Sequence record: OL960581
From: Escherichia phage vB_EcoM_SA20RB
Direction: 5' to 3' (one strand)
DNA length: 64,000 nt
The notes beneath the pieces are model-generated. The model did not search any database. It had not been told where the DNA came from and worked only from the letters and a program-made list of their open reading frames with translations. The position numbers were made by a program, and so were the translations under genes. Below are positions 5,164-55,479 of this stretch, piece after piece (the first letter of the stretch is position 1; every line of letters starts with the position of its first letter).

Positions 5164-5583
5164 TTATTCCTTAAAGTGAGCTTTCAACATCTGATACAAT
5201 GACCATGCCTGTTCATTATTTTCAATAATAACTTTCATTACCGGGAATTCTGTGAAATCTTCTATTTGTTCTTGCTCTTCCTGCTCTTGCTCTTCGGCTG
5301 CCTGATATGGATTTTCCACTTCATCAAAGAACCCAGCTTCACTTTTTGAAAGCCAAATAAAGTCTTCATCCAAAACATCTTTACCAGAAGATAGTACTAA
5401 ATTTCCAGTAGATGACAAAATTTTAATAGGACGCCCAAGAGCATCCACATCTAAAATTTTAAAAGGATACATACCTAAACGTCGCGCATAGATTCCGTTA
5501 TCAGTATGGTCTTTAATAAAATTTTCTTGAGCTTGTTTATTTTTAAATTGATACCATTTATTAACTTCAAATTTAATAGCCAT
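5164..5583 (-). CDS. hypothetical protein (139 aa), T4 goF/comC-alpha position
   Basis: ATG start; acidic [10 protein letters not shown] stretch; assignment by position and size only. Confidence 0.45.
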
Positions 5584-6502: not shown

Positions 6503-6532
6503 ATTATACTCTGGTCCCAAGAGTTTGTAAAC
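6503..6532 (-). promoter_or_regulatory. T4-type early promoter
   Basis: plus attata 6503-6508 and gtaaac 6527-6532 (minus GTTTAC..TATAAT). Confidence 0.55.
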
Positions 6533-15992: not shown

Positions 15993-16193
15993 ATGGTACA
16001 AAAATTAATGGCACTTGTTAATGCCATCAAAGGTAATAAAAAACGTATAGCTTTTACTATTTCTGCTATGGTAGGAATTTTACTCTGGAACTTTATTTTA
16101 TCACCAATTGCAATTGCGCATGGTGTTAATATTCCAGTAGTTACTCTTGATACATTCGTAGATTTAGCATTTGCTCTAGTTGGGCTAATTTAA
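15993..16193 (+). CDS. small hydrophobic (membrane) protein, plus strand (66 aa)
   Basis: ATG 15993 preceded by strong SD taAGGAGGacat; two hydrophobic segments; convergent with gene 61 (4-nt 3' overlap). Confidence 0.5.
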   Translation: MVQKLMALVNAIKGNKKRIAFTISAMVGILLWNFILSPIAIAHGVNIPVVTLDTFVDLAFALVGLI

Positions 16194-17218
16194 ATCTTGG
16201 CATATTTAGATAGCCGCATTTTAGCCATTAACCCCTGGGCAATATTATTTTTCATATATTCCATAATTTGTTCAGGGGTTGCACCTTCCTTTCTAATCAT
16301 ATCATTGACATCTTTTGATTTCCAGGGAGATTTATCCCAAAACATAACCCTTTCTCCTGCATCAACTAATTTAGTCATTCGTTTGATAGTGTCAGGGTGA
16401 CGAGGTTCATTATCTAAAACCCACACTCGTCTATCTTTAAATGGAACAACTTCTAGGTCTAATTGACCGCCAGTAATGGCTATACCATTTTCAATAAAAA
16501 GTGAATCTATAGGTCCTTCTAGAACATATACATCACCATCTTTGACTCGTTCAACTCCATAGATTTTTGTTGCCTCAGGATAAGCTTTGATGGTGATATA
16601 TTTTTGAGGAGCATCTTTCTTTAATGCACGTCCTTGAAAAGACTCAGCTTTTCCATTAGCATTATAAATTGGAATAACAAGACGAGGCTCAGGTATTTCC
16701 TTTTTATATGTTCCTGGCGCTATACTGTTAACTAATTTAGGCCATTCAGTTGTAAACCAAAGATATTTCCATTTATCCTTTGGAATACAACGAGCTTTTA
16801 CATATTTTATAATTGGATGGTCTTCCGCCAGTTTATCTAATCTAATACATGACGGAAGAGATTTAATTATTTTCTTCTCAGGTTGTTTAGGAAGTTCTTT
16901 AGGTTTTTCTACTGGACGACTTTTACCTTTTTCTTTTCTTATTTCAAAGATATACTCACGATATAAATCAGGTTCAAACTCCTTTAAATATATTCCGATT
17001 GGTGCATGATAGTTGCAGTTATAACAATGAATATTTCCTTCATTATTATCGCCATAATACCATCCACGGGCTTTATTTTGATCGGTTTTTGAATCTCCAC
17101 AAACAGGGCATCTAAACCGTAATTTAAAAGTTGAACTATTATTTACTTGTGCGAATTTAGGCAAATGAGCTAATGCACGGTATGCAAACTCATTATCAAT
17201 CCAAGGTATTGATGACAT
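16190..17218 (-). CDS. 61: DNA primase gp61 (342 aa)
   Basis: zinc-ribbon CPVCGDSK..CYNCNYH, 342 aa as T4 gp61, ATG start. Confidence 0.85.
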   Translation of the reverse strand: MSSIPWIDNEFAYRALAHLPKFAQVNNSSTFKLRFRCPVCGDSKTDQNKARGWYYGDNNEGNIHCYNCNYHAPIGIYLKEFEPDLYREYIFEIRKEKGKSRPVEKPKELPKQPEKKIIKSLPSCIRLDKLAEDHPIIKYVKARCIPKDKWKYLWFTTEWPKLVNSIAPGTYKKEIPEPRLVIPIYNANGKAESFQGRALKKDAPQKYITIKAYPEATKIYGVERVKDGDVYVLEGPIDSLFIENGIAITGGQLDLEVVPFKDRRVWVLDNEPRHPDTIKRMTKLVDAGERVMFWDKSPWKSKDVNDMIRKEGATPEQIMEYMKNNIAQGLMAKMRLSKYAKI

Positions 17219-17220
17219 TT

Positions 17221-17385
17221 TTACTCTTCTTTTTCTTTAGATTCCTCTTTTTTCTTTTTAGGAATCTGTTCAGGACCTTTATTTACTACAGCACCTGACG
17301 TTGTTCCAGTAGAGATATTTTCAGGATTACCACCTGAATCTCCAGCTACCATATCTTCTTTAATAAATTCTTTAAACGTTTTCAT
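17221..17385 (-). CDS. small lysine-rich protein (54 aa), not in ORF track
   Basis: hand-translated MKTFKEFIKEDMVAGDSGGNPENISTGTTSGAVVNKGPEQIPKKKKEESKEKEE; stop 2 nt before gene 61 ATG. Confidence 0.4.
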   Translation of the reverse strand: MKTFKEFIKEDMVAGDSGGNPENISTGTTSGAVVNKGPEQIPKKKKEESKEKEE

Positions 17386-17397
17386 ATTAGCCTCTAA

Positions 17398-17691
17398 TTA
17401 TTCACCTACCACTTCAGCGATGATATTTTTATTATTAAAGTTTTTATCGCAATACAGAACATAATTATACTGCATTACACCACCAGACTTAAGCTGTTTT
17501 TGCACTTCGGCTTTCATTTCAGGACGATCACGCTCAACGATATTCATAATATCCGCTTCAATTTGAGTTTCAACCTCAGTCTGATCTGCAGTCATAGACC
17601 ATTCACACAAATCTTTGTCATAACCCGCCATAGCAGGCTGAGCAGTACAAGAAGCCAAAGCAAAAATTGCAGCAAAAACAAATTTTTTCAT
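17398..17691 (-). CDS. sp: periplasmic protein, Spackle (Sp)-like (97 aa)
   Basis: cleavable signal peptide (..PAMA); 97 aa; located between primase and helicase genes as T4 sp. Confidence 0.5.
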   Translation of the reverse strand: MKKFVFAAIFALASCTAQPAMAGYDKDLCEWSMTADQTEVETQIEADIMNIVERDRPEMKAEVQKQLKSGGVMQYNYVLYCDKNFNNKNIIAEVVGE

Positions 17692-17794
17692 GATAATCTC
17701 CTCAGTAGTTTATGTTTACAGTATCTCAATTTTCAACAAAAGTAAACACTAGTAGAAGTAAACAGACAAATTGCAATAATTGGTGATTTCAGTT

Positions 17795-17977
17795 TCATTC
17801 TTCTCCTCCTTCGTGTTGATGAACATATTCTTTTTCAAGTCTAGAGCACAAGTTTTCATATTCAACTAATAAAAATGAATCAAGTGCGTTATTTCTATGC
17901 TGACACCGTTCTTGTAAAGAATCCATCTCTGAACGTTGTTCTTGTGTTAATAATTGATAACCTGATACTTTAGACAT
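17795..17977 (-). CDS. hypothetical acidic protein (60 aa)
   Basis: ATG with GGAGAA SD; downstream of early promoter 18007-18036. Confidence 0.45.
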   Translation of the reverse strand: MSKVSGYQLLTQEQRSEMDSLQERCQHRNNALDSFLLVEYENLCSRLEKEYVHQHEGGEE

Positions 17978-18006
17978 TTTGTTCTCCGCGATTAGCTGAT
18001 AGAATT

Positions 18007-18036
18007 ACTATAACACAACTCTATCAGCTTGTAAAC
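18007..18036 (-). promoter_or_regulatory. T4-type early promoter
   Basis: plus actata 18007-18012, gtaaac 18031-18036. Confidence 0.55.
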
Positions 18037-18038
18037 TA

Positions 18039-18281
18039 CTATTTTACTAGCATCAATAACTGTTTCTCTAACTTGACGATTTTACGAAAGTATCTTTTGC
18101 ATTGGCGAATCTGCCTCTTCGTAGGACGTACAACAAACTTAATAAATTCCACTCGACCAAATGGAGGACTTTCTTCTGCTGGAATATCTAACACCAATTC
18201 CCACGTATCTGCAATAAGTGCTTTGAATTGCGTATTTTTCCTGACTTTATACGGAGTAGGTTTAAATAAAACAATATGCAT
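18039..18281 (-). CDS. hypothetical basic protein (80 aa)
   Basis: start moved to ATG 18279-18281 (GAGGA SD, directly after dmd stop); track start TTG 18323 would overlap dmd by 38 nt. Confidence 0.45.
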   Translation of the reverse strand: MHIVLFKPTPYKVRKNTQFKALIADTWELVLDIPAEESPPFGRVEFIKFVVRPTKRQIRQCKRYFRKIVKLEKQLLMLVK

Positions 18282-18282
18282 A

Positions 18283-18465
18283 TTATCCTCGGCAATCCAC
18301 TTCGCACACTTTCTTGTCATCAATGAAAGCTTTAACTAATGCTTTATTAACTTCAGCATATTGACTAGTAGCCCATTGAACGTCATCTTTCATCATTGTG
18401 ATTTCTTTAGTAAACATGCTTTCATTCTTAAACCACCCCATAAAAACTACCTTTACCAATTCCAT
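18283..18465 (-). CDS. dmd: Dmd antitoxin-like protein (60 aa)
   Basis: 60 aa MELVKVVFMGWFKNESMFTKEITMMKDDVQWATSQYAEVNKALVKAFIDDKKVCEVDCRG matches recalled T4 Dmd; GAGGAG SD; adjacent to gene 41. Confidence 0.6.
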   Translation of the reverse strand: MELVKVVFMGWFKNESMFTKEITMMKDDVQWATSQYAEVNKALVKAFIDDKKVCEVDCRG

Positions 18466-18494
18466 AACAATCTCCTCATTTAACCAACAAGACT

Positions 18495-18524
18495 ACTATA
18501 CCATAGTCTTGTCAGCTTGTAAAC
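18495..18524 (-). promoter_or_regulatory. T4-type early promoter
   Basis: plus actata 18495-18500, gtaaac 18519-18524; near-duplicate of promoter at 18007-18036. Confidence 0.55.
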
Positions 18525-19951
18525 TAAAATTTTAATTCATTTGCCAAAGCATCTAACTGAGCTCGAGTGGATTCATTTCTTTGATAACGATTCTGCTCAG
18601 CCTGAATCTGCTGTGAACCTGCTACTTCGTTCACTTCAGTTGGAGTAGAATCTTGTTCAATTTCTACCCATTTCTGATTTCCCTTTTGAACACCCATCAA
18701 AAACTTATTCCATTTGTTCTTATCACCATATCGTGATTTGATTTGCTTAATAAGTTGTTGTTCAGCAGCTGCTAGCTCCTCGGTTTCAATGACCGCAAGC
18801 ATAAAATCGGCTGTTGCTGGAAGACCAGCAGATTCTGCAATATCGCTCATGTTAACATCAGAAGAATCCCAAGCTTGTTTACCAACCTGTGCTGCAGTCC
18901 AAAGAACAGTTTCGGTTTCAACAGCCAGAGCACGCAATTCCTCTGCAATAGCTTTAACAGTTGTGTAACTATTTTCTGAATAAACTCTAATGCGGCAAGA
19001 TTTACAAATACCTAGATAGTCGACAATAATGATTGTTGGAACAAAATTCTTTTTGAGCTTCAATTCATTCAAGAGAGACCTGAATGTGTTAGCATCTGCT
19101 CCGCCAGTAGGATACTGTTTAACGATTAAACGGCCGAGAGTAGATTTCTCACGCCATTTTTCCATTTTTCCTTTATACTCAGCGTAAGAAATATGTCCAT
19201 CATCAATGTCATCAAGAGAAACATCAAGCATATTAGCATCAATACGCTTAGCACAGACTTCTTCTGCCATTTCCATGGAAATATAAAGAACATTATGTCC
19301 GAGCTGTAAATAATCTGCCGCTAATGAACACAATCCTAATGATTTACCGACGTTAACGCCAGCCATTAAAACGTTCAGTGTTCCAGTTTCAGCTCCGCCT
19401 TTCGTAATTTTGTTTAGAATTCTGAGTTTAAATGGAACCTTACGAGCTTTATTCATATAAGATAGCCAACGTGCTTCGTAGTCATCCATCCAATCATGAC
19501 CAACGTAACTATCAAATGAAATTGATAATGCTTGGCGCATGATGTCAGGAATAGCACCAACATCCGGCATTTTCTTATTTCGTTTTTCCGGAGGAAGCTC
19601 AGCATTAGTTTGAATTTCGATTATTTTAGACGTAGCATTAAACATCGCCCTTTGCTGAACATATTTTTCTGTTTCTTTTATTAACCAACTGTGGTCTTCT
19701 GGAGAATCAGCTAGTTTTGAAATAAGTGTTTTTACACCAGAATATTCTGTTTCAGTAAATGAACTATTTTCTAATGCAACATTTAACGCATTAATAGATG
19801 GAACGCTATGGTATTCATTAACATGAGATTTAATTAATTTGAATGTATTTTTAGCTGGACCACTTTCAAAATATTCTGAATCCATATATGGCCAAACTTT
19901 TGAAAAATAAGCTTGATCAAATATGAGATGAGAAAGAATAATTTCTACCAC
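18524..19951 (-). CDS. 41: replicative DNA helicase gp41 (DnaB-like, 475 aa)
   Basis: Walker A GVNVGKS; 475 aa; GTG start with AAGGAG SD. Confidence 0.85.
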   Translation of the reverse strand: MVEIILSHLIFDQAYFSKVWPYMDSEYFESGPAKNTFKLIKSHVNEYHSVPSINALNVALENSSFTETEYSGVKTLISKLADSPEDHSWLIKETEKYVQQRAMFNATSKIIEIQTNAELPPEKRNKKMPDVGAIPDIMRQALSISFDSYVGHDWMDDYEARWLSYMNKARKVPFKLRILNKITKGGAETGTLNVLMAGVNVGKSLGLCSLAADYLQLGHNVLYISMEMAEEVCAKRIDANMLDVSLDDIDDGHISYAEYKGKMEKWREKSTLGRLIVKQYPTGGADANTFRSLLNELKLKKNFVPTIIIVDYLGICKSCRIRVYSENSYTTVKAIAEELRALAVETETVLWTAAQVGKQAWDSSDVNMSDIAESAGLPATADFMLAVIETEELAAAEQQLIKQIKSRYGDKNKWNKFLMGVQKGNQKWVEIEQDSTPTEVNEVAGSQQIQAEQNRYQRNESTRAQLDALANELKF

Positions 19952-55449: not shown

Positions 55450-55479
55450 ACTATACCATAACCTTGCCAACTTGTAAAC
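55450..55479 (-). promoter_or_regulatory. T4-type early promoter
   Basis: plus actata 55450-55455, gtaaac 55474-55479. Confidence 0.5.

Follow-up and report, generated by a model that had tools for sequence, protein, structure and literature searches.

In the 64,000-nucleotide stretch of Escherichia phage vB_EcoM_SA20RB analysed here (sequence record OL960581; the whole stretch is called the window below), the interval between primase gene 61 and helicase gene 41 carries a cluster of small genes. We interpret it as this phage's version of the early accessory locus published for phage T4 as an 'anti-TA island' (TA, toxin-antitoxin), and we give this explanation as a whole a probability of about 0.85. 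The cluster contains close counterparts of the T4 proteins Dmd, TifA and Spackle (Sp), lacks adfA, and holds between tifA and sp one gene that is absent from T4. This gene, a 60-codon open reading frame (ORF) at positions 17795-17977 on the minus strand, is referred to here as ORF60. ORF60 is a real gene. We tentatively propose that its product binds a host defence protein or toxin stoichiometrically and thereby inhibits it, a reading to which we give somewhat less than even odds.

The source of the window is a Tequatrovirus, a T4-like myovirus. Over positions 17100-18700 the window was 90-97% identical in nucleotide sequence to more than 500 records of Tequatrovirus, many of them at 96-97% and Escherichia phage Ec_MI-02 the closest (97.3%), and its gene order agreed with that of annotated relatives and of T4. 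Helicase gene 41 (18524-19951, minus strand) flanks the cluster upstream and primase gene 61 (16190-17218, minus strand) flanks it downstream. All genes lie on the minus strand and, in the direction of transcription, follow the order promoter (18495-18523), dmd, tifA, promoter (18007-18035), ORF60, sp and 61.1. The initial annotation of this DNA, made from the sequence alone, had described four small ORFs between primase and helicase as a counter-defence and exclusion cluster. All four were present at that place and on that strand, and the functional reading was supported by near-identity of Dmd and Spackle to the T4 proteins and by assignment of the 80-aa gene to T4 61.4 (TifA). In T4 the region has been termed a probable 'anti-TA island', with Dmd, TifA and gp61.2 all countering toxin-antitoxin systems (PMC9391042, Srikant et al. 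2022). The functions of Dmd, TifA and Spackle in this phage are presumed from 93-98% identity to their T4 orthologues.

The dmd gene (61.5; 18283-18465, minus strand; Shine-Dalgarno GAGGAG) encodes a 60-aa protein assigned to PHROG 2102. The product matched the Pfam family Dmd (PF17587) over residues 1-60 of 60 with an E value of 7e-46, and the crystallised T4 protein (PDB 5hy3_B) with an E value of 6e-37. Alignment with T4 Dmd gave 59 identical residues of 60, the sole change being T34S, in agreement with the initial identification of this protein as Dmd. The gene is the first after helicase gene 41, lies behind an early promoter and is co-operonic with 61.4; in T4, dmd-61.4 transcription has been described as early-promoter-driven (PMC9391042). 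By homology, Dmd would bind and neutralise the RNase toxins RnlA and LsoA once their labile antitoxins RnlB and LsoB decay.

Directly downstream of dmd, tifA (61.4; 18039-18281, minus strand) encodes an 80-aa basic protein with an isoelectric point (pI) of 10.3. The gene is translationally coupled to dmd (TAATATG). TifA matched Pfam DUF7279 (E 2e-20) and was identical to T4 gp61.4 at 73 of 74 positions over residues 1-74. From codon 75 the window protein ends in a six-residue tail, LLMLVK, compared to the eleven residues FVTCDYAEILK at positions 75-85 of T4. The 80-aa variant is common to at least 63 phage records at 95-99% identity, and TifA homologues were found in 654 records of the phage collection. 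Residues K55, R56 and R59 are kept, and residue 41, in the interface loop, is phenylalanine as in T4. The K55/R56/R59 triple alanine mutant served as an RNA-binding-defective control in TifA(RB69), according to the methods of the published study (PMC10853763).

This gene had been listed at first as an 80-aa unknown, a label that must be corrected: 61.4 has been renamed tifA, its product being a protein inhibitor of the ToxN endoribonuclease (PMC9391042, Srikant et al.), and TifA binds ToxN and RNA, trapping the toxin in a ribonucleoprotein (PMC10853763, Guegler et al.). In this phage TifA would likewise sequester ToxN on RNA in an inactive ribonucleoprotein. The accompanying suggestion that the small neighbours might be further inhibitors was therefore borne out by the literature for the 80-aa gene (PMC9391042, PMC10853763); the 60-aa ORF is a candidate.

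The sp gene (61.3; 17398-17691, minus strand) encodes Spackle, a 97-aa protein with a signal peptide at residues 1-22. Spackle matched Pfam T4_Spackle (PF25676) with an E value of 9e-45 and PDB 6x6o with an E value of 2e-60. The mature chain of 7cn6 aligned from residue 23, which confirms the signal peptide. The protein was identical to T4 Sp at 93 of 97 positions, and three of the four changes fall in the signal peptide. Its earlier description as a secreted 97-aa Sp-like protein is thus matched over the full length, signal peptide and mature domain included. Spackle is a periplasmic inhibitor of the gp5 tail lysozyme and confers superinfection exclusion (PMC7677548). The copy in this phage is likely to be exported to the periplasm, where it would block the gp5 lysozyme of superinfecting T-even phages.

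ORF60 encodes a 60-aa acidic protein (pI 4.9, net charge -6) behind a GGAG Shine-Dalgarno sequence. Its sole annotation match was PHROG 37915, which has no annotated function, and the records of relatives list it only as 'hypothetical protein'. It occurred in 20 of 50,697 phage records, always at the tifA-sp site and with all copies at least 95% identical; those in Ec_MI-02, IME339, ime09 and PP01 were 98-100% identical at the same site. The Tequatrovirus copies are too alike to support a selection test. A single-sequence k-mer search of 5.8 billion proteins returned only the gene's own cluster, phmmer, run exhaustively against 1.8 billion representative proteins, returned nine relatives at 47-69% identity, and a profile search of the 5.8 billion proteins returned 38 clusters with E values of 1e-12 to 1e-30. 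All 38 clusters lacked Pfam domains and informative names. Six residues, Y7, Q14, L21, E23, H27 and E50, are invariant among homologues at 43-69% identity, and acidity is uniform across the family (median pI 4.7, net charge -6). A match to a Zn-ribbon (E 0.033) was rejected because neither cysteine of ORF60 is conserved in the family.

The AlphaFold2 model of ORF60 is a two-helix hairpin with helices at residues 12-27 and 31-56 and a predicted local distance difference test score (pLDDT) of 90.5. Foldseek gave no significant PDB match to the model, returning only generic helical hairpins, and the sole match in BFVD was a member of the family. No sequence-profile match to the PDB fell below an E value of 0.4. 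Hairpin matches to Gp5.9 and Acb2/Tad1 (E 0.07-0.7, with one or two family members) were rejected as chance.

Homologues of ORF60 always occur within arrays of small, unannotated genes that share one strand, and these arrays belong to phages, plasmids and conjugative elements. Among the carriers are marine phage contigs, an integrase/replicase island, a conjugative element of Rheinheimera and a plasmid of Vibrio fluvialis. Outside the phage records the family was found in 1 of 72,556 plasmids, in 1 of 185,579 species genomes (GTDB) and in one IMG/VR contig, and no copy was found in complete E. coli genomes. One metagenomic family member of 125 aa (P0032) has a C-terminal extension of about 65 residues (containing GFYIGTTTDEGLPLSRESVEYWEDEDQALTALEKGAWTQRE) that matched no Pfam family; in this protein the hairpin may be joined to a second small mobile-element domain.

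The proposal that ORF60 inhibits a host defence protein or toxin draws on the position of the gene in the island. A broader form of the proposal, which we offer as speculation, is that ORF60 is the first member of a new group of inhibitors, small acidic helical hairpins borne by phages, plasmids and conjugative elements, that it targets a host toxin or defence system beyond those countered by Dmd, TifA and AdfA, and that it moves between T4-like phages as a ready-to-express promoter/hairpin cassette that inserts into the anti-TA island. Several observations weigh against a counter-defence interpretation. ORF60 had no significant match in Pfam, NCBIfam, PADLOC, annotated PHROGs, the PDB or BFVD. 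There was no conserved neighbour of its homologues across seven genomic contexts, the neighbours themselves lacked PHROG annotation, and the longer family members contained no informative fused or extra domain. Guilt by association within the island is weak evidence for ORF60. As for the established genes, TifA homologues differ in activity, the T4-type F41 being the weaker allele (PMC10853763), and in this phage the F41 allele is kept and the C-terminal tail is altered.

A rather doubtful alternative gives ORF60 a regulatory or host-takeover role, in which the small acidic helical protein would tune early infection by binding a housekeeping target, for example RNA polymerase, a protease, a chaperone or a nucleoid protein. 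Such roles are common among the small early proteins of T4, and the early promoter and strong Shine-Dalgarno sequence of ORF60 would suit one. Its family also weakly recalls the LTXXQ proteins CpxP and Spy (PF07813): it forms a helical hairpin with L-T-x-E-Q where the first long helix begins, and this LLTxEQ N-terminal helix gave weak PF07813 matches in 4 of 33 family members (best E 6e-4). This likeness was sub-threshold, however. ORF60 itself did not match PF07813, PDB profile matches had E values of 3.9-8.8, and Foldseek found neither CpxP nor Spy. Unlike these proteins, ORF60 has no signal peptide and is a quarter of their size. Membership of the LTXXQ group was therefore rejected, and we treat the likeness as a motif-level resemblance and not as homology. 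The family is moreover sporadic and extremely rare at the frequencies given above, a pattern more in keeping with a niche-specific counter-measure than with general host takeover.

ORF60 lies in a replacement segment of 309 nt (17749-18057, minus strand); the corresponding stretch of T4, from tifA codon 75 to the sp promoter, is only about 35 nt long. In a four-way DNA alignment the segment comprised the variant 3' end of tifA, the second promoter with a hairpin, ORF60 and a micro-ORF, and its end coincided exactly with the GTTTAC that opens the T4-type promoter of sp. The tifA-sp slot is the most variable slot of the island between relatives. It is empty in T4, holds an 84-aa goF-like gene in a48 and phiC600P9, holds ORF60 in Ec_MI-02 and Hafnia phage IsaacDaniel, and holds both genes in PP01. 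Junctions in the slot fall in promoter or ribosome-binding-site microhomology, as in the loss of the 84-aa gene at GGAGAA. This agrees with the microhomologies of 6-10 bp seen in dmd-tifA amplification and with the model of PeSL units, composite early promoter and stem-loop units that flank small variable ORFs and mediate modular shuffling in T4-type phages (PMC2839356, PMC4122927). ORF60 probably arrived on a self-contained PeSL-type cassette with its own promoter and hairpin.

The micro-ORF (17733-17798, minus strand; MKLKSPIIAICLFTSTSVYFC) has 21 codons and a strong GGAGGAG Shine-Dalgarno sequence, and its start codon overlaps the stop codon of ORF60 (ATGA). It accompanies ORF60 in 20 of 20 phage records. 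It resembles a signal peptide truncated at the sp promoter, although its status is uncertain; a donor-gene remnant and a tiny membrane peptide are both conceivable.

We consider it unlikely that ORF60 is a neutral or selfish passenger on such a cassette, with no benefit in its present hosts. The patchy spread, with one small set of near-identical Tequatrovirus copies, is what a passenger would show, and the cassette edges in microhomology and the truncated-looking micro-ORF, which suggests a carried-over donor fragment, point the same way. Against this, every copy seen has kept the frame of ORF60 open, together with its start codon, its Shine-Dalgarno sequence and the residues invariant in the family, and the headful limit of T4 penalises useless DNA (PMC9391042).

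The cassette reading was supported by the promoters of the cluster. Sigma-70-type promoters were scanned and scored out of 12 against the consensus. The first early promoter (18495-18523, minus strand) precedes dmd-tifA and has a -35 TTTACA at 18523-18518 and a -10 TATAGT at 18500-18495. The second (18007-18035, minus strand; TTTACA-17-TATAGT) lies directly before ORF60 and is absent from T4. Both are TG-extended, have a 17-nt spacer and score 10/12. The first begins at the stop codon of gene 41 and the second at the stop codon of tifA; the sequence of the first is identical in T4, Ec_MI-02 and PP01. Each is combined with a predicted hairpin, at 18482-18517 for the first (15-bp stem, dG -18.9 kcal/mol, z -4.6) and at 17994-18029 for the second (14-bp stem, dG -18.0 kcal/mol, z -3.7). 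The -10 hexamer lies in the loop of both hairpins, and the register is the same although the arm sequences differ. Both promoters fit known PeSL cassettes in their predicted architecture.

The initial annotation had called these sites near-duplicate early promoters with a small gene behind each. Both sites were found, and an exact 15-mer, TAGTTTACAAGCTGA, is common to them, but the blocks are only 67-70% identical over 64 nt, so that 'near-duplicate' mildly overstates the case. ORF60 does lie directly behind the promoter at 18007-18035, whereas the 80-aa gene is the second cistron after dmd. Among the 21 early-promoter-like sites of the window (mean pairwise identity 45%, standard deviation 9), this pair ranked third of 210 pairs. 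Scanning of GTTTAC-N17-TAnnnT sites, including those at 6532, 7640, 18036, 18524, 55479, 60490 and 63189 on the minus strand, found a hairpin around the -10 at 8 of the 21 (z < -2; six with dG <= -17 kcal/mol), indicating that the promoter/hairpin design is a genome-wide feature. The site at 55479 shows the same ACAAG(C/T)TG...TATAGT design as both cluster promoters and is 59-61% identical to each.

These data also bear on whether the two promoters arose by a recent duplication specific to this locus, outside any genome-wide promoter/stem-loop family. The 15-mer occurs nowhere else in the 64 kb, and the two sites share -10 hexamer and hairpin register. Such a duplication is nevertheless improbable given the modest overall identity, the differing hairpin arms, the third site of the same architecture at 55479 and the frequency of -10 hairpins in the window. 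In addition, the upstream promoter is already present in T4, and the downstream promoter arrived with the cassette. Finally, the notion that ORF60 is a chance open frame, suggested by its 60 codons and lack of annotated function, is scarcely credible and effectively refuted by the conservation data (38 clusters at E values of 1e-12 to 1e-30, conserved columns and coding-sequence annotation in relatives), besides its promoter, Shine-Dalgarno sequence and confident fold model.

The arrangement of promoters suggests how the cluster might be expressed. Early in infection, host RNA polymerase would start at the first predicted promoter and produce a bicistronic dmd-tifA message. The second would drive ORF60 and read on into sp, 61.1 and gene 61. 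We infer this read-through because no intrinsic terminator was predicted in 17100-18700 and because the -10 of the sp-proximal promoter is degraded to TACTGT. That promoter (17718-17746, minus strand; TTTACT-17-TACTGT) is of the T4 type and fell below the threshold of the promoter scan; its -10 is TACTAT in T4, Ec_MI-02 and PP01. It is probably weakened here, and sp may therefore rely more on read-through from the ORF60 promoter. The hairpins, in turn, may attenuate read-through.

The two promoters also place direct repeats, spaced by 488 bp, on either side of dmd-tifA. T4 evades toxIN by amplification of the dmd-tifA unit through microhomologies of 6-10 bp (PMC9391042). The 15-bp exact repeat of this phage is longer than those used in T4, and amplification or excision of dmd-tifA should therefore be favoured, with the repeats serving as recombination substrates. 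They predict a site of amplification under toxIN selection in this lineage.

At the other end of the cluster, 61.2 (adfA) is missing. The junction (17386-17397, minus strand) is the 12 nt from the sp stop codon to the 61.1 start and holds the 61.1 ribosome-binding site. No AdfA homologue was found in the 64-kb window by tblastn with T4 AdfA and a 118-aa variant as queries. The junction falls between two TAGAGG(T/C)TA(A/G)TATG ribosome-binding-site repeats, which precede 61.2 and 61.1 in relatives, and adfA was probably lost by recombination between them. The gene product gp61.2 is AdfA, an anti-DarT factor, and T2 also lacks adfA (PMC11257639), so the loss is not unusual. AdfA homologues were present in 487 records of the phage collection. 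The 118-aa '61.2' of Ec_MI-02 (L001, 1788-2144) and PP01 could be aligned with T4 AdfA only over residues 109-208, the C-terminal half of that protein (35% identity, E 1e-9), and is a short divergent relative of it.

The remaining features lie around these genes. Gene 61.1 (17221-17385, minus strand) encodes a 54-aa low-complexity protein of PHROG 1823, which has no annotated function; it is identical to T4 gp61.1 at 53 of 54 positions and ends two bases upstream of the primase start codon. Two plus-strand ORFs (17500-17745 and 18073-18339) were set aside as antisense shadows of sp and tifA. No Rfam family was found in 17000-18800, and there was no compositional anomaly. Homologues of the 84-aa gene of the tifA-sp slot occurred in 84 phage records, with the annotation 'goF mRNA metabolism modulator' (PP01, L002, 2804-3058). 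The gene itself is not in the window, where the search gave only a weak paralogue match at 5443-5565 on the minus strand (37% over 41 aa, E 5e-5), possibly, from its position, the resident goF gene. In the interval between genes 56 and 61, where T4 has dam, a plus-strand ORF for a 66-aa hydrophobic protein was present at 15993-16193, as in Ec_MI-02; no Dam homologue was detectable in the 64-kb window.

Taken as a cluster, these genes bring no novelty, since Dmd, TifA and Spackle have been characterised before and the idea of the island is in the literature. The analysis contributes the relabelling of the 80-aa gene as tifA, the demonstration that adfA is absent, and the singling out of ORF60 as the sole new lead. 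As a rare, conserved, cassette-borne small protein in the most variable slot of the island, ORF60 is a reasonable candidate inhibitor. If it is one, the island would be extended and a handle gained on a further host defence, and ORF60 would be an example of promoter/stem-loop cassettes delivering counter-defence genes.

As a system, the cluster is already known; each of its genes is present in deposited genomes, and mechanisms have been published for three of the five. The same gene content and order was found in Hafnia phage vB_HpaM_IsaacDaniel (MW749000), which has dmd, tifA, ORF60, sp and 61.1 with no 61.2 and aligned in a single piece at 96.1% identity. Ec_MI-02 and PP01 differ in retaining the 118-aa AdfA-related gene, and PP01, ime09 and IME339 have the additional 84-aa goF-like cassette gene upstream of ORF60. 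The T4 island runs 41, dmd (61.5), tifA (61.4), sp (61.3), adfA (61.2), 61.1 and 61. The cluster described here shares its position, strand, flanking genes and first promoter, and differs from it in the deletion of adfA and in the 309-nt segment with a second promoter, ORF60 and a micro-ORF in place of about 35 nt. Similar to published PeSL cassettes (Arbiol 2010; Comeau 2014), each unit runs from the stop codon of the preceding gene and comprises an AT-rich stretch, a promoter of the form TTTACW-N17-TAYWAT, a stem-loop, and a Shine-Dalgarno sequence with its ATG, and close relatives show insertions and deletions of small ORFs beside the cassettes of the cluster. The published figure legend on phage PST places the stem-loop immediately upstream of its promoter, whereas in the present cluster the stem overlaps the -10.

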